From the IMG/VR virus record IMGVR_UViG_2684622617_000023: DNA of 21,333 nucleotides. One strand, 5' to 3'. Position numbers and translations under genes: made by a program. The stretch's first letter is position 1. Every line of letters starts with the position of its first letter. A model generated the notes under the pieces. That model was given only the letters and a program-made list of their open reading frames with translations, ran no database searches and was not told the origin of the DNA. This document shows, piece by piece, positions 1,106 through 19,880 of the stretch. The DNA is from a virus. Its lineage: Duplodnaviria; Heunggongvirae; Uroviricota; Caudoviricetes.

Positions 1106-1819
1106 TCAATAATCAAGCCCTTGCCTGGATACATATCTGTCTGGCGGGAAGCCATAATAGCGGTGAAATACAGAAATAAAGTAGGACCGGCTTGAATAAC
1201 CACATTTTTCTGCTACAGCCTGTCCATATCCATACCGGGAACATAACATATTTACAGCAACACGCATCCGCTCTTCCAGCAACAAGCGACTGAACATGCC
1301 CCCTTCATTTTTCAGTTTTGTCTTTAACAAACTCTCACTCATATGCAACTGTAGAGCAATCGCACCAAGCGTCCAGCTTGCTGATATATCTGTCTGAATT
1401 ATCGCCCTGACTTTGGCACTTATGCTGGATAAACATCCACTTAAAAACAATGACATCCGTTCATCTGTTTCAAACAGAGACAGGCAGGCCATCATAAGAA
1501 ACATATCCGTGACCTCTCCGGAAAATCCCTGGCTGGTAATTAAAGCCGCAGCCAACGCAGGATTGTTGGGTTCCAGCAACAGGTAAAGCGGAATGTCAGT
1601 CAGACGAGTCCTCGTCAGCTTATGCTGACTTTCCAGATATTGACTTACGACGGATTCGCTTATATCGACAATTTTAACTTTGCCATAATGCATAAGGAAA
1701 AGCTCCCTGATGCATTTGGTGGCCAGAACGACTGAGCCTGGCTTAAGTGACAACGTATCCTTTTCAAGAAAAATATTAATTGGGGAGCAAACCATGATAA
1801 CTGAACAGACAACAGCCAT
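1106..1819 (-). CDS. AraC-family transcriptional regulator (prophage-encoded, PatE/Psr-like position)
   Basis: 237-aa ORF whose C-terminus carries the AraC-type HTH signature (...GYSSRSYFISVFHRYYGFPPDRY...). No clear Shine-Dalgarno at either candidate start (1819 or 1795), so the start is uncertain. Confidence 0.75.
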   Translation of the reverse strand: MAVVCSVIMVCSPINIFLEKDTLSLKPGSVVLATKCIRELFLMHYGKVKIVDISESVVSQYLESQHKLTRTRLTDIPLYLLLEPNNPALAAALITSQGFSGEVTDMFLMMACLSLFETDERMSLFLSGCLSSISAKVRAIIQTDISASWTLGAIALQLHMSESLLKTKLKNEGGMFSRLLLEERMRVAVNMLCSRYGYGQAVAEKCGYSSRSYFISVFHRYYGFPPDRYVSRQGLDY

Positions 1820-1954
1820 TATAATTTTACTTTCATTAGCAATTGGTTAGCTCAATTATAGCCCCAAAAGGTAAATTATCATCAACACATAAGCAAAGGA
1901 CTGACAGGTGCCGCCCCCCCCACCAGCCGCCCATTTACCACAAATAAAAAGCCT

Positions 1955-2152
1955 TCAGGACTGAATGCGTCTGTAACAACCGCACTGATAGTCTGCCAGA
2001 CCCGCCATAACCAGCTGGGTCAGTATTAACTGGCAGCGTTCGCGTGAAAGGTAAGTATTCTGCGCAATCTCCCCGACTGTCGCCGGTTCGGTAACGCTTA
2101 ATTCATTAAACACCACTCTGGCGGTTTCTGTCATATCCTGCTGTTTTAGCAT
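1955..2152 (-). CDS. Small hypothetical protein (65 aa), first ORF after the tR'-like terminator
   Basis: Track ORF 1955..2275 would start inside the terminator U-tract; the internal ATG at 2152-2150 has an AAGGGA Shine-Dalgarno about 8 nt upstream. Function unknown. Confidence 0.3.
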   Translation of the reverse strand: MLKQQDMTETARVVFNELSVTEPATVGEIAQNTYLSRERCQLILTQLVMAGLADYQCGCYRRIQS

Positions 2153-2273
2153 GTCTTTTTCCCTTTTCCGGTTAACGTGACATACCAATAACTCTTGTCG
2201 AAAAAGCCAGCAAGTTGAAAGACCGGTATTAGCAACCACCAGCGCGTTTAACGCCCCGTGCCGTTTTTCAGTC

Positions 2274-2298
2274 ATAAAAAAACCCGCAAAAAGCGGGC
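2274..2298 (-). terminator. tR'-like rho-independent terminator about 80 nt downstream of the Q-like gene
   Basis: On the - strand: GCCCGC-UUUUU-GCGGGU hairpin followed by UUUUUUU. The position matches the lambda pR'/qut/tR' layout where Q-modified polymerase reads through. Confidence 0.6.
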
Positions 2299-2376: not shown

Positions 2377-2931
2377 TCAAAAAGCAATAACTTTTTTCTC
2401 TATACCAAAAGCCATAACCATTGGTTTGTACAAAATAAATTCTGCCACCTTTAGCCAATGCTCAATGCGTCTTTCACAGGTTCTTAAACTCCATTCCGGA
2501 TGTGCATCATTCAGCAGTTCAGCCATTTTGCGCTTAGTCATCCCCCGCCCCACATAACGCTGACTCAGAACATTGAGCAGCCCGGGATAACCTGCCAGTA
2601 CTTCACCAATAACCCTGTCGATTATTAACGCCTCTGAATCGGTACAATGCACCAGCCAGCTTTTTTGCTTGCCGTTGATCATATCCCGCAAAAAAGCCTC
2701 AAGTTTAGGTTTGTCCAGACCTGCTTTTTTCATCCTCCGGAGCGCCTCGTTAATTGCCGTTTTTGTCAGCTTTTTAGAGGTCAGCAACTGGTTGAACATA
2801 TTTCCCGTCTTACCGCCGCCAATATACGACCAGCGCCCCCACATACGTAGTTTCCCCTGAATCCAGACACTTTCCAGCGTGGTGAGACGAAGGTGCTCTC
2901 CGCTTTTTCCTGTGTTCGTTGGGTAAATCAT
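2377..2931 (-). CDS. Putative late-gene antiterminator (Q-like), 184 aa
   Basis: ORF 2377..3051 trimmed to ATG 2931-2929, which overlaps the upstream gene's TGA stop (ATGA coupling). It is the last early gene before a terminator and the tRNA region, as for lambdoid Q. Family assignment is by position and memory, not by detected motifs. Confidence 0.5.
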   Translation of the reverse strand: MIYPTNTGKSGEHLRLTTLESVWIQGKLRMWGRWSYIGGGKTGNMFNQLLTSKKLTKTAINEALRRMKKAGLDKPKLEAFLRDMINGKQKSWLVHCTDSEALIIDRVIGEVLAGYPGLLNVLSQRYVGRGMTKRKMAELLNDAHPEWSLRTCERRIEHWLKVAEFILYKPMVMAFGIEKKVIAF

Positions 2932-3218
2932 AAATAACCGTCCTTTCTCCAGATCTCTTGTGTGCGAAAAACACCTTCTGCATGCATCAGGCGCAATTCT
3001 TCTTTGGTGTAATCGCTGGTTTTTACTCTCCCGTCGATTAAATCGTGGCATGAGTTACAGGCAATCGCTGCCTGCATATCGTGTGGCTTTATCGCTGTTC
3101 CGCACGTTCCCGCCAGCCTGTAATGCGCCAGCACAGAGGTTTCGGGATTGTGATTGCAGTAGCCAGGGATTCTGATCTGGCATATCTGGCCTTTAGCCGC
3201 TTTACGTAAATTCACCAT
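2928..3218 (-). CDS. YbcO-like nin-region protein (DUF1364-type, Cys/His-rich, putative nuclease)
   Basis: 96 aa, ...CQIRIPGYCNHNPETSVLAHYRLAGTCGTAIKP...ACNSCHD..., resembling DLP12 YbcO as recalled. Start ATG 3218-3216 overlaps the stop of the upstream gene by 1 nt. Confidence 0.7.
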   Translation of the reverse strand: MVNLRKAAKGQICQIRIPGYCNHNPETSVLAHYRLAGTCGTAIKPHDMQAAIACNSCHDLIDGRVKTSDYTKEELRLMHAEGVFRTQEIWRKDGYL

Positions 3219-3817
3219 TACGCAAACTCCAGTAGTTGTGCGGCCACATTTTCAACTTCCTCCTGAGAGGAGAATTTACGGAACAGAATCCAGTTCCACA
3301 GCACATTCAGTACAGATTTATAAACCTGCTGAAACTCGACTTCGTCCATATTCGCAAAAGCGATGGATTTTGCCCGACGCCCACGGCTACCGTCCGGATA
3401 AATATGCTCGGTGTAAAATCCGGCCTGAATGGTTACCCACTCGCGGAAAGCCTCAAACGACTTTAGCAACGCCGTATCCCGGGTTCTACGAGTCGCAACG
3501 GTGTTAAGGTATTGCTCTGCGGCATCACTCAGGGCTGGCGTGTGTTCCCGACCAACTGATTCGCACAGGTAATCAACGAAACCAGACAGCAGTTCTCGTT
3601 CGCGAGGCGTGATCGCCCCACCGACCGGAGTCCAGTAATCGAATCCCAGTTGCAGGAGTTTGAAAAAACGCTTGTGGAATGCGTAGTTACGCACACGCTT
3701 AAAATCTGCGTGTATCCACTCACCTATTTTGATTTGATGCAGAAAATCGCAACTCTCCGGCGTCGCCGGGAGAAGTAAACCAGAAGAAGTTTGTTTGACC
3801 AGTTGTATATGCGCCAT
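3218..3817 (-). CDS. Conserved lambdoid nin-region protein (199 aa), function unknown
   Basis: Complete ORF with a GAGAG Shine-Dalgarno-like element upstream of ATG 3817; first gene of a coupled three-gene block ending in the Q-like gene. Confidence 0.65.
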   Translation of the reverse strand: MAHIQLVKQTSSGLLLPATPESCDFLHQIKIGEWIHADFKRVRNYAFHKRFFKLLQLGFDYWTPVGGAITPRERELLSGFVDYLCESVGREHTPALSDAAEQYLNTVATRRTRDTALLKSFEAFREWVTIQAGFYTEHIYPDGSRGRRAKSIAFANMDEVEFQQVYKSVLNVLWNWILFRKFSSQEEVENVAAQLLEFA

Positions 3818-3896
3818 TTCTCAATCTCTCGATGGCGCAGTGCAGCAGATGCCAGTTGTTCAAGCTAGCACGCAAATTGTAAACCAGAATGCCAGG

Positions 3897-3925
3897 AAAA
3901 AACAAAACCCGCCGAAGCTGGTTGT
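3897..3925 (-). terminator. Possible tR2-like terminator upstream of the nin block
   Basis: On the - strand: imperfect stem AACCAGC-UUCG-GCGGGUU (one A/G mismatch) followed by UUUUGUUUUUU. Shares the GCUUCGGCGGG core with the terminator at 786..811. Confidence 0.35.
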
Positions 3926-4236
3926 GTGCGGTTGCGTTGAAGTCTCCTAGCCAAAGAGTAGCGGTGACCACTCCCCGCCGATAATCTTAGTTGTTTAATT
4001 TCGTAAGCTAACTAGGCTAAAAGCTCTCTGTTGTCTGCCTGTTGTACAATTAACAAAATGAACAACGAACTAGATATACCAACGCCAGAATGGTGCAACA
4101 AATCCCAAACAACACAGCAATGCAACAATAACATATGTTATTTTCCTCTCACGGGATTCAGTCCTGAATTCTCATAAAGCTAATCTTTTTTTAAAAACAT
4201 ACTGTTAGATCACATGCACTTTCTTTCTTAACATCG

Positions 4237-4264
4237 TTGACTTCGCATGCGAAGCGTTTAAAAT
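4237..4264 (+). promoter_or_regulatory. Candidate sigma70 promoter of the GHKL operon with an embedded 14-bp perfect palindrome (possible operator)
   Basis: TTGACT (4237-4242), 16-nt spacer, TAAAAT (4259-4264), about 50 nt upstream of ATG 4317. CTTCGCATGCGAAG (4241-4254) is a perfect palindrome spanning the -35/spacer. Confidence 0.45.
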
Positions 4265-4316
4265 CAACAATTTGCACTTAAGGTATTTATTTTCCCAAAC
4301 ACATAGAGAGTAAATT

Positions 4317-5708
4317 ATGACTGAGAACACGACTCCAACAGCAGACTTTAGTCCTAGTAAAAGATTTTTTGTAAGTATGCTAACTCGAGATATCGACTTA
4401 AACGATGCCATACTTGATCTGCTTGATAACTGCGTCGATGGGGCTTTACGTACAATAAAAGACACAAAAAAAACTTCAAAACCATATGAAGGATTTTATG
4501 CGAAACTTACGATTAATAAAGATGTCTTTATTATAGAAGACAATTGCGGAGGTATCCCTAAAAGCTTCCGAGAATATGCTTTTAAAATGGGACGACCCCA
4601 TCAAAAAGAAGAAGAAAATGAAGGCACCGTTGGCGTCTATGGTATTGGTATGAAAAGAGCCATTTTTAAAATGGGTAGAGATTGCTCAATACAATCGAAT
4701 AATCCCGATGGCGCATTCACTGTAGATATAACACCTGATTGGATCGATGGTGATGGTTGGAAAATACCGATGCACGAGAGTGACTATGATAACAAAAATC
4801 CAACAGGCACAACTATAGAGATAAAAAAACTCCATTCTAATGTGGCACAAAAATTTAATGAGAGCACATATCTTACTGATCTCTTTTTACAGATAAAACA
4901 CTCATTGTCATTTATTATTCAAAAAGGATTTAAAATAGAATTAAATGGAGTTGTTGTTGAACATAATCCGATTAACATCATAACTGATCATTCTAAAATA
5001 GAACCATACATATATAAAGCTAAAATAGACGATGTTGATATCGATTTAGTTGTTGGCTTCTATAAAAATTTAGAAGATGACAATGATGATGTTTTAGAAA
5101 AAAGGAGTTCTGATGATGCTGGATGGACTGTCATTTGCAATGACCGCGTTGTTCTATATTGTGATAAGACACATCTCACAGGTTGGGGCTTTGCTAATGT
5201 ACCAAGGTTTCATACCCAATTTATAGCAATTTCTGGGGTTGTTCGCTTTACCAGTAAAAACCCAGAAAAATTACCAATAACAACAACGAAACGAGGTGTC
5301 GATCTTAGTTCTACATTGTACAATGATGTACGAAATAAAATGATTGAAGGGATGATGCATTTTATTCGATTCACCAATCAGTGGAAAGGTGAGCATCTTG
5401 AAGAAGGGAAAAAATTACTTAAGTCAGCTCAGTCACATGAAGCTCAATCTTTATTTGAAATTACCCCACAATCAACTCCAGAAGATAAAAAAAATAACTG
5501 GTCCAACCCTAATAGAAACAAAAATGAGTGGCGATATACACCTAAGCTGCCTACCCCAGTAAAAAAAAGCTCTACTGTACGAATAATCTTCACCAGAGAG
5601 AAAGAAGATGTTAAAATTTTATCTAAATATTTCTTTGGACATGAAGATGCTAGCGCTTCTGATGTGGGGATGCAATGCTTTGATACGGTGATTGAAGAGG
5701 TGAAGTGA
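4317..5708 (+). CDS. GHKL (Bergerat-fold, MutL/MORC/Hsp90-like) ATPase, 463 aa
   Basis: N-box LDLLDNCVDGA (Asn38 codon at 4428-4430), G1 box IEDNCGGIP, G2 box GTVGVYGIGMKRA, in canonical order near the N-terminus. AGAGAG Shine-Dalgarno 6 nt before the ATG. Gene looks strongly AT-rich compared with flanking phage genes. Confidence 0.8.
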   Translation: MTENTTPTADFSPSKRFFVSMLTRDIDLNDAILDLLDNCVDGALRTIKDTKKTSKPYEGFYAKLTINKDVFIIEDNCGGIPKSFREYAFKMGRPHQKEEENEGTVGVYGIGMKRAIFKMGRDCSIQSNNPDGAFTVDITPDWIDGDGWKIPMHESDYDNKNPTGTTIEIKKLHSNVAQKFNESTYLTDLFLQIKHSLSFIIQKGFKIELNGVVVEHNPINIITDHSKIEPYIYKAKIDDVDIDLVVGFYKNLEDDNDDVLEKRSSDDAGWTVICNDRVVLYCDKTHLTGWGFANVPRFHTQFIAISGVVRFTSKNPEKLPITTTKRGVDLSSTLYNDVRNKMIEGMMHFIRFTNQWKGEHLEEGKKLLKSAQSHEAQSLFEITPQSTPEDKKNNWSNPNRNKNEWRYTPKLPTPVKKSSTVRIIFTREKEDVKILSKYFFGHEDASASDVGMQCFDTVIEEVK

Positions 5709-6697
5709 TGTCTGGACAATACATTCCCTATCACTTAAGGCATAATAAGTCTATTGATAGAGAGATTTTTCTCGAAAGCCTAAACCTCTTAAGCAAAAGA
5801 CTAAATATTCAAGAATATACATATATAGGTTTTGGTGGTCCGATGCTTGAAGATTTTAGAATCATGCATAATCGTATCGCTCTTTCTGATATGATTTCTC
5901 TCGAAGAACAAGAGTCTACTCACATCAGACAAAAATATAATTTGCCTTATAATTGTATTGATTGTAAGCTAATATCAGCTCATGACTTTATTCTTGATTA
6001 TAGTTTTTCTAAACCATCAATAACATGGTTAGACTATGCCTCCCCGAAAAAAATACAAACGGATCTAGATGATATACACTTACTAAGTACTAAAGTAAGC
6101 TCTTTTGATATTTTGAAGGTCACCTTCCCCATAAATCCTAGTTCTTATTACCAACGTAGAGTTGGAGAAAGTTTAGATATTTTTAAAGAAGCTTTTATTA
6201 ATTCATTAAAATCATTGCTTGGGAAAAAGTATCTTGATTTTAATCTTCAGATATCAAATGCAGATCTTTCAGATCGTAAGATTAAAGCTCTTTTAATACG
6301 AATTATTACAAACGCTTTTAGATCAGCAATAGAACGTGGTCTTTCAGGACGTAAGGATAAGATTCAGTATTACCCATTATCCTTAAATCAATATAATGAT
6401 GGCAGTCATACCATGTTGACAATATCAGGTTTTTTCTCCTCAGAACAAGAATATATAGAGTTATCTAAGGCATGCGACCTTTCTAACTGGCAATTTTATT
6501 CAACAAATTGGGAAGACGTGCAAGAAATAGCAATACCAACACTAACAATTAAAGAAAAGATAAATTTAGATAGTAAACTGCCTGATAAAGAAGCATATCA
6601 GGCAGCCGCTGAAGAGTTCTCTTTAAACGAAAATGAACGGGATAACTATTATAAATACTATAGGTTATACCCTAACTTCCAAAGAATTATGGTTTAA
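5708..6697 (+). CDS. Uncharacterised partner protein of the GHKL ATPase, 329 aa
   Basis: ATG 5708 overlaps the upstream TGA (TGATG) with a GAGG Shine-Dalgarno about 9 nt upstream; the track's start at 5705 is a GTG one codon earlier. No catalytic motif recognisable by eye. The 3' end overlaps the convergent methyltransferase gene by 33 bp. Confidence 0.7.
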   Translation: MSGQYIPYHLRHNKSIDREIFLESLNLLSKRLNIQEYTYIGFGGPMLEDFRIMHNRIALSDMISLEEQESTHIRQKYNLPYNCIDCKLISAHDFILDYSFSKPSITWLDYASPKKIQTDLDDIHLLSTKVSSFDILKVTFPINPSSYYQRRVGESLDIFKEAFINSLKSLLGKKYLDFNLQISNADLSDRKIKALLIRIITNAFRSAIERGLSGRKDKIQYYPLSLNQYNDGSHTMLTISGFFSSEQEYIELSKACDLSNWQFYSTNWEDVQEIAIPTLTIKEKINLDSKLPDKEAYQAAAEEFSLNENERDNYYKYYRLYPNFQRIMV

Positions 6698-7816
6698 ATA
6701 TTCGGGCTGTACTCTTTTATTTAATAAATTGTACAGCCCCTTTAATATATATTCAGCAACTATTGGTGACACGCTATTTCCTATTTGTCTGAAACTATGC
6801 CATTTAGTTACATGAAAGCGAAACCAATCAGGGAAGCCTTGTAATCTAGCAGCTTCTCTTGGTGTAATCACTCTTGGATGATAAGGGTGGATCGGCCTGA
6901 CGGCTTGAAAGCTTCCTTTATCTCTAGCGGTTCCCGCCCTTAAAGTCGGGCAAAAACCATTTGGATCTAATCTTGTAGATCTTGAAATTTTATCAGTTTC
7001 CCCAAAAGATAAGGAAGCATAACGCTCTTGGACGATTTTGCTATGTAATGTTCCGGTACATCCAGATATGATATTATTTTTTAACTTAGCGATCGATTCT
7101 GTATCACCAACATTCCGAGGGATCTGCCCCCATAATTTTTCATAAAATCCCCCTTTTCGATCTTTTTTAATTGTTCGCCAACTCTCAGAGTCTGATTGCC
7201 AATTGGCATCGATAATATCTGGTAATCCATACAAAGCATCTTTTACAGTAACCGGATCAATCATTTTAGGCATAAATACTTCATCTGAAATATCAAGCTT
7301 CAATGATTTTTTTACACCGATAAAAAAATATCTAGTTCGAATAGTTGGAGCACCATAATCAGATGCTTTTACCTTGATGGGATCAAGAATATCATAATCA
7401 CCGCTAACCAAATTAAATGCTTTATTTCTAATGCCAGAATATTTCTCTTGCATAATACCTGGAACATTTTCTGCCAAAAAGAATAATGGCTGTAATTCTG
7501 ATACTAAACGGTAGAAATGCATGTAAAGCTGATTCCTGCTATCATCAGGATTCCCCTTGCCTATTGAACTAAATCCTTGGCACGGAGGACCGCCAATAAT
7601 ACCATCTATGGGCATATCGTTTTTAAAAAAACCCTTAATTATTTCTGCATTTAGTAAAGAAACATCTTCTTGGACGTGCAAACTTCTTGGAAAATTAATT
7701 GCGTGAGTATTAATAGCATGTTGATCAATTTCAACTGCCATTTTAACATCAAATCCAGCACGTGCAGCACCAAGACTTAGACCTCCAACGCCAGAAAACA
7801 AATCTATTACATTCAT
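6665..7816 (-). CDS. DNA (cytosine-5)-methyltransferase, 383 aa
   Basis: C5-MTase motifs in order: motif I FSGVGG, motif IV GPPCQGFS (catalytic Cys), motif VI ENV, motif VIII-like RTRYFFIG, C-terminal motif X GNSVSPIVAEY. AT-rich. Target specificity cannot be read from sequence. Confidence 0.85.
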   Translation of the reverse strand: MNVIDLFSGVGGLSLGAARAGFDVKMAVEIDQHAINTHAINFPRSLHVQEDVSLLNAEIIKGFFKNDMPIDGIIGGPPCQGFSSIGKGNPDDSRNQLYMHFYRLVSELQPLFFLAENVPGIMQEKYSGIRNKAFNLVSGDYDILDPIKVKASDYGAPTIRTRYFFIGVKKSLKLDISDEVFMPKMIDPVTVKDALYGLPDIIDANWQSDSESWRTIKKDRKGGFYEKLWGQIPRNVGDTESIAKLKNNIISGCTGTLHSKIVQERYASLSFGETDKISRSTRLDPNGFCPTLRAGTARDKGSFQAVRPIHPYHPRVITPREAARLQGFPDWFRFHVTKWHSFRQIGNSVSPIVAEYILKGLYNLLNKRVQPEYLNHNSLEVRV

Positions 7817-7848
7817 ATAGTTGCAACGTCTCTTATTAGTTTCTATGT

Positions 7849-7857
7849 ATTATAACA
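7849..7857 (-). promoter_or_regulatory. Extended -10 promoter element (TGnTATAAT) upstream of the methyltransferase gene
   Basis: - strand reads TGTTATAAT with the -10 hexamer at 7854..7849, about 33 nt upstream of ATG 7816; no convincing -35. Confidence 0.35.
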
Positions 7858-8078
7858 CAACTGTTCTTGATGTTTTAACCCCATAAGATAACCTCATAAA
7901 GGCTATCCCTTGAAAATACCGGATCGCATAAATTTAATCTTTCAAAACTACTTGTCTATTAATCGAGCAATTTAAGGTTGTTTTAGTCATGTCGATACCG
8001 ACATAGTTAACTAAACCCATTTCATCGTCCAACAAATGGGGGTAATACACTTTGATTTATAGTCGGGTGGGTTTTTCT

Positions 8079-19405: not shown

Positions 19406-19600
19406 ATGAGATATGACAATGTTAAACCATGTCCATTTTGTGGTTGTCCATCAGTAACGGTGAAAGCCATTTCAGGATATTACCGAGCGAAGTGTAACGG
19501 ATGCGAATCCCGAACCGGTTATGGTGGAAGTGAAAAAGAAGCACTCGAACGATGAAATAAACGAACCACTGGAAATAATAATGGAGGTGTTCATGTATAA
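19406..19600 (+). pseudogene. ralR: ralR (restriction-alleviation Lar / type I toxin) with an in-frame TGA at codon 50
   Basis: From ATG 19406 the frame reads MRYDNVKPCPFCGCPSVTVKAISGYYRAKCNGCESRTGYGGSEKEALER, then TGA at 19553-19555, then NKRTTGNNNGGVHV to TAA 19598-19600. 49 + 1 + 14 = 64 codons, the length I recall for K-12 RalR, where this codon is TGG (Trp). Confidence 0.6.
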
Positions 19601-19781
19601 AATTACCGCCACTATTGAAAAGGAAGGTGGCACTCCTACTAACTGGACAAGATATTCAAAATCTAAACTAACGAAATCAGAATGCGAAAAAATGCTCTCA
19701 GGTAAAAAAGAAGCAGGCGTTTCCAGAGAGCAGAAAGTAAAACTGATAAATTTTAATTGCGAGAAACTTCAGTCCTCGTGA
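19593..19781 (+). CDS. ydaC: Small Rac protein, 62 aa
   Basis: ATG 19593 with a GGAGG Shine-Dalgarno 6 nt upstream (MYKITATIEKEGGTPTNW...); the longer track ORF starting 19521 lacks a ribosome-binding site. Confidence 0.65.
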   Translation: MYKITATIEKEGGTPTNWTRYSKSKLTKSECEKMLSGKKEAGVSREQKVKLINFNCEKLQSS

Positions 19782-19880
19782 ATTGCATTGTATTCAAATT
19801 AAAACTTCATAGCTGATTATTAATAATCAACATCGGGCGTCAATTTAAGTCTAACATTGGCGCCTGCCAGAGGTGATGCG

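Follow-up and report, generated by a model that had tools for sequence, protein, structure and literature searches.

Conserved promoter elements and a probably incidental palindrome upstream of a GHKL ATPase operon in an Escherichia coli prophage

The 21,333-nucleotide (nt) stretch of DNA analysed here (IMG/VR record IMGVR_UViG_2684622617_000023; referred to, at its full length, as the window) represents a lambdoid prophage of Escherichia coli and contains a 3.6-kb AT-rich island of three genes (hereafter the cassette), with a GC content of 31-38%, compared with ~50% in its flanks. Two of these genes, encoding a GHKL-type ATPase and a protein of the Methyltransf_35 family, constitute an operon, and the present analysis concerns the promoter-like sequence upstream of it (4237-4264) and the perfect 14-bp palindrome (4241-4254) by which this sequence is overlapped. 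An earlier note, made from the sequence alone, had described both elements and had proposed that the palindrome serves as an operator. The explanation favoured here, to which a probability of roughly 0.58 is assigned, is that of a sigma-70 promoter of the GHKL operon with an incidental palindrome in a freely varying spacer. The features of the promoter and the cassette are as follows (aa, amino acids; m5C, 5-methylcytosine; E, expectation value).

4237-4242, + strand: -35 hexamer TTGACT (5/6 matches to TTGACA), of which TTGAC is invariant in nine diverged lineages
4241-4254, no strand: perfect 14-bp palindrome CTTCGCATGCGAAG, spanning the final two positions of the -35 hexamer and 12 of the 16 positions of the spacer
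4259-4264, + strand: -10 hexamer TAAAAT (5/6 matches to TATAAT), followed by a conserved CA at 4265-4266
4269-4272, + strand: predicted transcription start, placed at the usual 6-8 nt past the -10 hexamer, giving a leader of ~47 nt
4305-4310, + strand: Shine-Dalgarno-like AGAGAG, 6 nt before the ATG at 4317, with an invariant GAG core (4308-4310)
4317-5708, + strand: gene for a GHKL/S5 (paraMORC-like) ATPase of 463 aa (ECs1955/Z2386; Pfam HATPase_c_3)
5705-6697, + strand: Methyltransf_35 gene (ECs1954/Z2387; Pfam PF20553, E = 2e-89)
6665-7816, - strand: convergent gene for an m5C DNA methyltransferase of 383 aa (ECs1953/Z2389; Pfam DNA_methylase, residues 1-361)
7849-7878, - strand: promoter of the methyltransferase gene, TTAAAA-18-TATAAT with a TGt extended -10 (10/12), at the right edge of the cassette

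The promoter of the GHKL operon

Reading of the sequence and a promoter scan confirmed that the near-consensus promoter and the perfect palindrome lie where the earlier note had placed them, with TTGACT-16-TAAAAT matching the sigma-70 consensus at 10 of 12 positions and with about 52-53 nt between the end of the -10 hexamer and the ATG of the GHKL gene. For comparison, diverged orthologous cassettes (75-90% protein identity; 75-87% for the GHKL ATPase and 68-90% for Methyltransf_35) were gathered. Their sources were further lambdoid prophages, Klebsiella aerogenes, and a location next to purB in Enterobacter asburiae, where a resolvase gene and tail-fibre-like genes are also present and which is a prophage remnant at most. 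This resulted in nine distinct upstream sequences, the window being one of the lineages in the dyad comparison given below.

Across all lineages, positions 1-2 (T, A) and 5-6 (A, T) of the -10 hexamer and the CA that follows it were invariant, and the spacer was 16 nt throughout. The promoter elements, the GAG core and the ATG were shown to be constant across seven to nine diverged lineages, while the upstream DNA and the leader were only 30-60% conserved. The same promoter was observed in prophages whose immunity and replication modules differ, as well as beside purB. Similarity between orthologous cassettes starts ~10-25 nt upstream of the -35 hexamer, indicative of the promoter being the left end of a mobile module. 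As judged from these alignments, 4237-4264 appears to be a genuine, conserved and selected promoter of the bicistronic GHKL operon; the earlier proposal that it is placed to drive this operon was thus borne out, the elements, their spacing and the Shine-Dalgarno/ATG region being invariant in nine lineages.

In published array data, ECs1954 and ECs1955 were detectably transcribed in an exponentially growing lysogen of E. coli O157:H7 Sakai, fell into a cluster shared with ribosomal and biosynthetic genes, and dropped together at the transition to stationary phase, with log2 changes of -2.6 and -3.2 (PMC2241611). The methyltransferase gene, Z2389, is listed as negatively RpoS-dependent in strain EDL933 (PMC2907692). 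No start site for this locus was found in two papers on enterohaemorrhagic E. coli (PMC10469882 and PMC7547250), including the supplement of an EDL933 Cappable-seq study.

Transcription of the GHKL operon in lysogens means that the prophage repressor does not silence it. This bears on the option of a phage repressor raised in the earlier note, specified here as the palindrome being an operator for the CI or Cro protein of the resident prophage, by which the cassette would be tied to the lysis-lysogeny state. The position of the cassette within a prophage of lambdoid type, where it runs antisense to the early-right operon, is consistent with such a role; however, the operators of the immunity region, three TGAACnnnnnGTWCA repeats at 13107-13180, are unrelated to CTTCGCATGCGAAG, the immunity region contains no palindrome-like site at up to three mismatches, and the promoter is retained beside different immunity modules and beside purB. 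Control by CI or Cro is largely refuted by these findings and is hardly credible. The TGAACnnnnnGTWCA repeats themselves lie between cro, which ends at 13091, and cI, which starts at 13171, together with a further promoter, CTGACA-17-TATCAT (10/12; 13135-13163), which ends 7 nt before the cI start codon, suggesting that the predicted cI mRNA may be leaderless, as at lambda PRM.

The palindrome and its variation among orthologous promoters

The palindrome cannot be extended, as A4240 faces C4255. Dinucleotide shuffles of the window were used as a control for chance occurrence: three perfect palindromes of at least 14 bp were found in the window, compared with 1.5-1.6 ± 1.25 in shuffles, and seven promoter-like sites matching at 10/12 positions or better, compared with 5.1. 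Neither the palindrome alone nor the promoter match alone is unusual by chance. Two palindrome/promoter overlaps were observed in the window, the second being located at 19814-19829, where the 16-bp TGATTATTAATAATCA covers the -10 element of a 10/12 promoter-like sequence (TTGACG-16-TAATAAT; 19814-19843, - strand), ~40 nt upstream of the RalA antitoxin small RNA (19599-19777; 225 bits in Rfam). A 16-bp perfect and AT-rich palindrome, AATAACATATGTTATT, is present at 4127-4142 in the same intergenic region as the GHKL promoter, centred on the ATG of a hok-like gene remnant (see below).

The earlier note had suggested searching the genome for the palindrome elsewhere. The window yielded no second occurrence with up to three mismatches allowed, and among the 175 fetched loci CTTCGCATGCGAAG did not occur outside this promoter, being present once per cassette locus and always at this position. 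The degenerate pattern TTCGC-NN-GCGAA, at up to two mismatches, was present in the window at chance level.

A perfect inverted repeat of this kind permits a stem of 5 bp with a loop of 4 nt, and leftward early-right transcription must cross it in order to reach the nin/Q genes; the palindrome could accordingly be imagined to act as a nucleic-acid structure, either as a cruciform or as a hairpin that terminates or pauses leftward transcription of the prophage or of the hok-like gene. However, the predicted folding energy was -4.8 to -5.1 kcal/mol with z = -0.8 on both strands, 40-43 of 200 shuffled sequences folding equally well, and neither a T-run on either strand, nor a terminator-like site in the scan, nor an Rfam match at the locus was observed. 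The palindrome is furthermore located upstream of the predicted start and would hence be outside the GHKL mRNA. A structural role is considered very improbable on these grounds.

The dyad was scored as the number of complementary pairs, out of seven, at the 14 homologous positions of each lineage, and 65 axes in a 78-nt region were scored for comparison.

Window: CTTCGCATGCGAAG, 7/7 dyad pairs
L160 (K. aerogenes): CTTCCCTAGAGAAG, 6/7 dyad pairs
L159: CTTCGCATAAGAAG, 5/7 dyad pairs
L004, L005 and L006: various 14-mers, 4/7 dyad pairs each
L089 (87% GHKL identity, the highest among the relatives): CAATCAATCAGAAG, 2/7 dyad pairs
L091 and L007: various 14-mers, 1/7 dyad pairs each

Within the palindrome, invariance across lineages was limited to two positions, A4253 and C4241, the latter belonging to the -35 hexamer; the promoter spacer of L089 reads AATCAATCAGAAGTGCT. 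In these alignments, conservation of the promoter is not accompanied by conservation of the dyad. The relatives reached a mean dyad score of 3.4 at the palindrome axis, compared with 1.96 ± 0.64 over the 65 axes, which makes it the third highest axis, with two others in the same region scoring equal or higher.

Attempts to enlarge the set of variants were of limited yield. One search of genome contigs for more promoter variants returned no match; a second contig search recovered relatives at 41-47% identity only, from which gene order but nothing about the promoter can be learned; and a scan of metagenome and viral collections with GTTGACTTC-N6-GAAG-N3-TTA-N-AATCA recovered only the three known variants of CTTC-N6-GAAG, a number too small to test the inner six bases for symmetry.

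Several observations weigh against an incidental origin of the palindrome. Only 3 of 300 shuffled windows (1%) contained a promoter site of at least 10/12 that was overlapped by any palindrome of 14 bp or more, although this proportion rose to 12% when the promoter threshold was set at 9/12. The three closest lineages (window, L159 and L160) hold a strong dyad of seven, five and six pairs, respectively, and the right-hand GAAG is present in six of the nine lineages. Between the window and L160, the central pair is changed from A-T to T-A, both sides being altered with pairing retained, and all four differences between the two 14-mers are confined to two dyad pairs, a pattern which would look like that expected under weak selection for symmetry.

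These observations are what sustains the possibility that the dyad, with its CTTC-N6-GAAG core, is a subclade-specific operator at which a dimeric regulator, of host origin or supplied by another prophage, represses the GHKL operon, holding a potentially harmful pair of ATPase and methyltransferase-like proteins at a low level until conditions change. Its position across the -35 hexamer and spacer is classic for steric repression, the raised mean score of the relatives at this axis would be consistent with it, and the six- to ninefold drop in expression upon entry into stationary phase implies some regulation. This drop is, however, common to hundreds of sigma-70 growth genes, and lineages with an intact promoter have lost the dyad (2/7 in L089; 1/7 in L091 and L007). 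Two other axes score as high, no second site is present in the 21 kb or in any fetched locus, and no candidate regulator travels with the cassette. An operator of this type is regarded as doubtful, the residual credence it retains being due to the 1% shuffle result, the five to seven pairs in the three nearest lineages and the one pair-preserving double change.

The search for a regulator gave consistently negative results. In agreement with the earlier note, no gene for a helix-turn-helix (HTH) protein is evident in the cassette: Pfam detected no HTH domain in the three cassette proteins, and the non-coding flanks of the cassette (3972-4316 and 7817-8247) contain no open reading frame of at least 50 aa and no HTH. 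Among 56 distant loci, neither a controller-type HTH gene nor a recurrent small gene was found beside the system, with the exception of a Vsr-like endonuclease gene, the only recurring small neighbour, in four loci. The flanking genes also differ, consisting of the hok remnant and DUF1367 in the window and of dinI and a LexA-like gene in L159 and L160, and these lineages therefore have no neighbouring regulator in common. The original proposal of an operator for a dimeric controller protein or a phage repressor was consequently not upheld, given a dyad of 1-2/7 in three lineages, a single site and the lack of controller genes.

Binding sites of known regulators were also compared with the palindrome. 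The SlyA consensus TTAGCAAGCTAA, which according to PMC5797941 has been refined by mutagenesis to TTA-N6-TAA, is matched at 9 of 12 positions, and 18 such matches were present in the window against 23 ± 5 expected, which is chance level. The core of the palindrome is TTC-N6-GAA and deviates from TTA-N6-TAA at the critical third positions, and TTA-N6-TAA was not found in 4201-4800; SlyA was accordingly rejected. A LexA site (CTGT-N8-ACAG) is absent here, and PurR, RbsR, GlpR (TTCG-N4-CGAA), NagC/Mlc, FNR, EvgA and lambda CII (TTGC-N6-TTGC) were dropped as partial and unconserved in the orthologues.

In related prophages, the LexA-box-like sequence CTGTATATATAAACAG and variants thereof were observed ~280 nt upstream of the GHKL gene (L004, ~4710-4730; L005, ~4712-4727; L006, ~4597-4612; L159, ~2300-2600), and such boxes are absent from the window. 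The adjacent minus-strand gene in L159-L162 encodes a DinI homologue and is followed by a gene for a LexA_DNA_bind protein; L004 carries a LexA_DNA_bind gene further to the left, and L006 has a Rem-family gene in the position equivalent to that of dinI.

The variation in the spacer also bears on whether the palindrome contains the recognition site of the m5C methyltransferase of the cassette, such that methylation of the promoter would tune the GHKL operon in a CfrBI-like manner. The cassette is organised like a restriction-modification (R-M) system with a convergent m5C methyltransferase gene, the core CGCATGCG/GCATGC is GC-rich, CpG-containing and symmetric within an otherwise AT-rich promoter, and R-M promoters under methylation control are documented, according to references given in PMC3874152 and a preprint on CfrBI. 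However, L159 has GCATAA instead of GCATGC as its core, despite an enzyme with 88% overall identity and 80-89% identity within the variable middle blocks; the corresponding cores are CCTAGA in L160 and AATCAATCAG in L089. No C-containing motif is common to the spacers of lineages with an 82-88% identical methyltransferase, and the promoter of the methyltransferase gene itself does not contain a related sequence. The O111 methylome paper does not assign a motif to the enzyme, and its structure, PDB 3G7U, is a structural-genomics entry. Methylation control at the palindrome is considered most unlikely.

The cassette, its prophage context and the wider gene triad

A 4-kb region including the cassette was found to match a portion of Sp10, a prophage of E. 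coli O157:H7 Sakai, at 100% identity; the cassette corresponds there to ECs1953-1955, and the region is likewise identical in EDL933 and O111 strains. Of 5426 complete E. coli genomes, 176 possess it, in each case as a single chromosomal copy. The segment at 1106-2275 (- strand) differs from Sakai Sp10, indicating that the window prophage is related but not identical to Sp10; this segment encodes a 237-aa regulator of the AraC family and a small protein (106 aa) with a weak match to a TrmB-like winged HTH domain, downstream of the Q antiterminator gene and two tRNA genes.

The cassette is situated between the replication genes and the DUF1367/YbcO/Q genes (nin/Q module), antisense to the early-right operon. 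Its left neighbour in the window is a frameshifted hok/gef-like gene:

3903-4134, - strand: decayed hok/gef-like toxin gene in flanking prophage DNA outside the cassette, matching, at 82% on the DNA level, a gene annotated as Hok/Gef in E. coli NRZ103545

The remnant retains a 21-aa fragment, MLFGICCTILALVYLVRCSFC, and a C-terminal fragment ending in NRELLA in different frames, the Hok/Gef protein of NRZ103545 being intact at 41 aa. Its 3' part (3903-4040) is still ~95% conserved, and no Rfam hok/sok match was obtained for it. In NRZ103545, the region equivalent to window positions 3972-8250 (3001-6132 of locus L003) carries two hypothetical genes and an S8 peptidase gene in place of the cassette. 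Different cargo is thus accommodated at a hotspot which lies between the hok-like gene and the replication module.

The GHKL and Methyltransf_35 open reading frames overlap by 4 nt, and the latter gene is translationally coupled to the former. The structural model of the GHKL ATPase had a predicted local distance difference test (pLDDT) score of 83, with the ATPase modules (GHKL and S5) of Hsp90/TRAP1, MORC2 and SMCHD1 as best fold matches, while that of the Methyltransf_35 protein (pLDDT 89) showed distant matches to class-I S-adenosylmethionine-dependent methyltransferases (Rossmann fold). The m5C methyltransferase is essentially PDB 3G7U (E = 1e-254), residues 1-367 aligning with residues 3-369 of that entry, and the 3' end of its gene overlaps the Methyltransf_35 gene by 33 nt. 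A TG-n-TAnAAT block upstream of the methyltransferase gene is retained in orthologous cassettes. The cassette is thus bounded by two conserved promoters, which drive convergent units with a 33-nt overlap.

The triad of m5C methyltransferase, GHKL and Methyltransf_35 genes was shown to be retained in 80 distant loci from many phyla, ranging from Enterobacteria to Cyanobacteria and Chloroflexi, usually in the co-directional order methyltransferase, GHKL and Methyltransf_35 within one operon. As the methyltransferase gene lies directly upstream of the GHKL gene in most family members, the promoter described here is specific to the convergent enterobacterial arrangement. GHKL ATPases of the paraMORC type have been described as parts of methyltransferase-linked R-M systems (Iyer, Abhiman and Aravind; PMC2292703). 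No family for the GHKL or the Methyltransf_35 protein was found in PADLOC or NCBIfam, and no nuclease domain was recognised in the cassette proteins. In its make-up, the triad resembles a defence or modification system of an uncharacterised, methyltransferase-linked type.

Interpretation and comparison with known systems

According to the explanation favoured above, RNA polymerase would recognise TTGAC and TAnnAT at a distance of 16 nt, with transcription starting near 4270, and the promoter would be a constitutive, growth-rate-sensitive sigma-70 promoter that drives two translationally coupled genes. The spacer would be largely unconstrained except in its length, and the palindrome would most likely be of neutral origin and not have a dedicated binding protein. 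The ancestor of the subclade may have possessed the near-palindrome CTTC-N6-GAAG with ~6/7 pairs, its outer arms being partly derived from the final C of the -35 element, and the O157 Sp10-type lineage could have reached 7/7 from there by one or two substitutions, through drift or a template switch.

Alternatively, the dyad CTTC-N6-GAAG, which in the O157/O111 lineage is perfect across 14 bp, could be a recently evolved operator through which a dimeric factor of enterobacterial or prophage origin gates the paraMORC-like ATPase and its partner with a methyltransferase fold. This reading is rated as unlikely. If true, the factor would gate the effector half of a widespread, apparently nuclease-less system linked to an m5C methyltransferase, which in prophages has been re-wired from a single operon to two convergent units.

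The early-right path, on the minus strand from cro (12837-13091) down to Q (2377-3051), crosses the cassette genes (4317-7816). Owing to the antisense orientation of the cassette, antiterminated transcription would pass through the GHKL operon on its antisense strand, whereas the methyltransferase gene would be read in sense. From this architecture, read-through at induction implies probable transcriptional interference with the GHKL promoter, and would favour expression of the methyltransferase over that of the effector genes during lytic growth, without an operator.

The promoter itself is ordinary, since a cassette acquired by horizontal transfer would be expected to bring a self-contained promoter with it. 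It marks the left boundary of ECs1954-1955 in prophage Sp10 of enterohaemorrhagic E. coli and is likely to be the signal for their constitutive, growth-phase-sensitive expression. With the palindrome being probably incidental, a hunt for its regulator can be spared; the cassette is the more interesting object of the two.

The C-box pattern recognised in R-M systems with a controller (C) protein is GACT...AGTC, which is not contained in CTTCGCATGCGAAG. Like these systems (PvuII, AhdI and Esp1396I), the cassette shows a dyad over the promoter of non-methyltransferase genes linked to a methyltransferase gene, and it shares convergent transcription units with AhdI (PMC2275141). In contrast to these systems, however, a C gene is present neither in or beside the cassette nor in the 56 distant relatives, the dyad is not conserved with the system, and there is a single dyad, whereas C-protein dimers bind paired operators cooperatively (PMC3874152).

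An inverted repeat in the promoter region and the linkage to an m5C methyltransferase are also features of SsoII, Ecl18kI, EcoRII and MspI, which possess methyltransferases with an N-terminal HTH, as cited in PMC3874152. Unlike those enzymes, the methyltransferase of the cassette, at 383 aa, has its catalytic domain from residue 1 onwards and does not have a regulatory N-terminal extension. CfrBI resembles the present case in having a symmetric GC-rich site inside a promoter near the methyltransferase gene; that site is in a shared divergent promoter region (preprint), whereas the genes of the cassette are convergent with separate promoters, and the orthologous promoters do not have a motif in common.

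With regard to the origin of the palindrome, template-switch 'correction' of quasipalindromes is a documented mutational route in E. coli, and its hotspots (Lovett laboratory; PMC7202029, PMC6357072) show the same combination of an imperfect repeat in relatives (here 5-6/7) and a perfect one in a single lineage, with differences restricted to dyad partner positions. The stem is short here, and on grounds of parsimony a 6/7 ancestor could equally have become perfect through one ordinary change of A to C at 4250.

The closest likeness is to the constitutive sigma-70 promoters of 'moron' and defence cassettes, which reside in lambdoid prophages as self-contained modules of promoter and genes and are similarly characterised by near-consensus hexamers and by an AT-rich foreign insert with its own promoter, oriented opposite to the phage operon, expressed in the lysogen and occupying a slot which elsewhere holds other cargo. 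No essential difference from such promoters was observed, the only oddity here being the perfect palindrome in the spacer.

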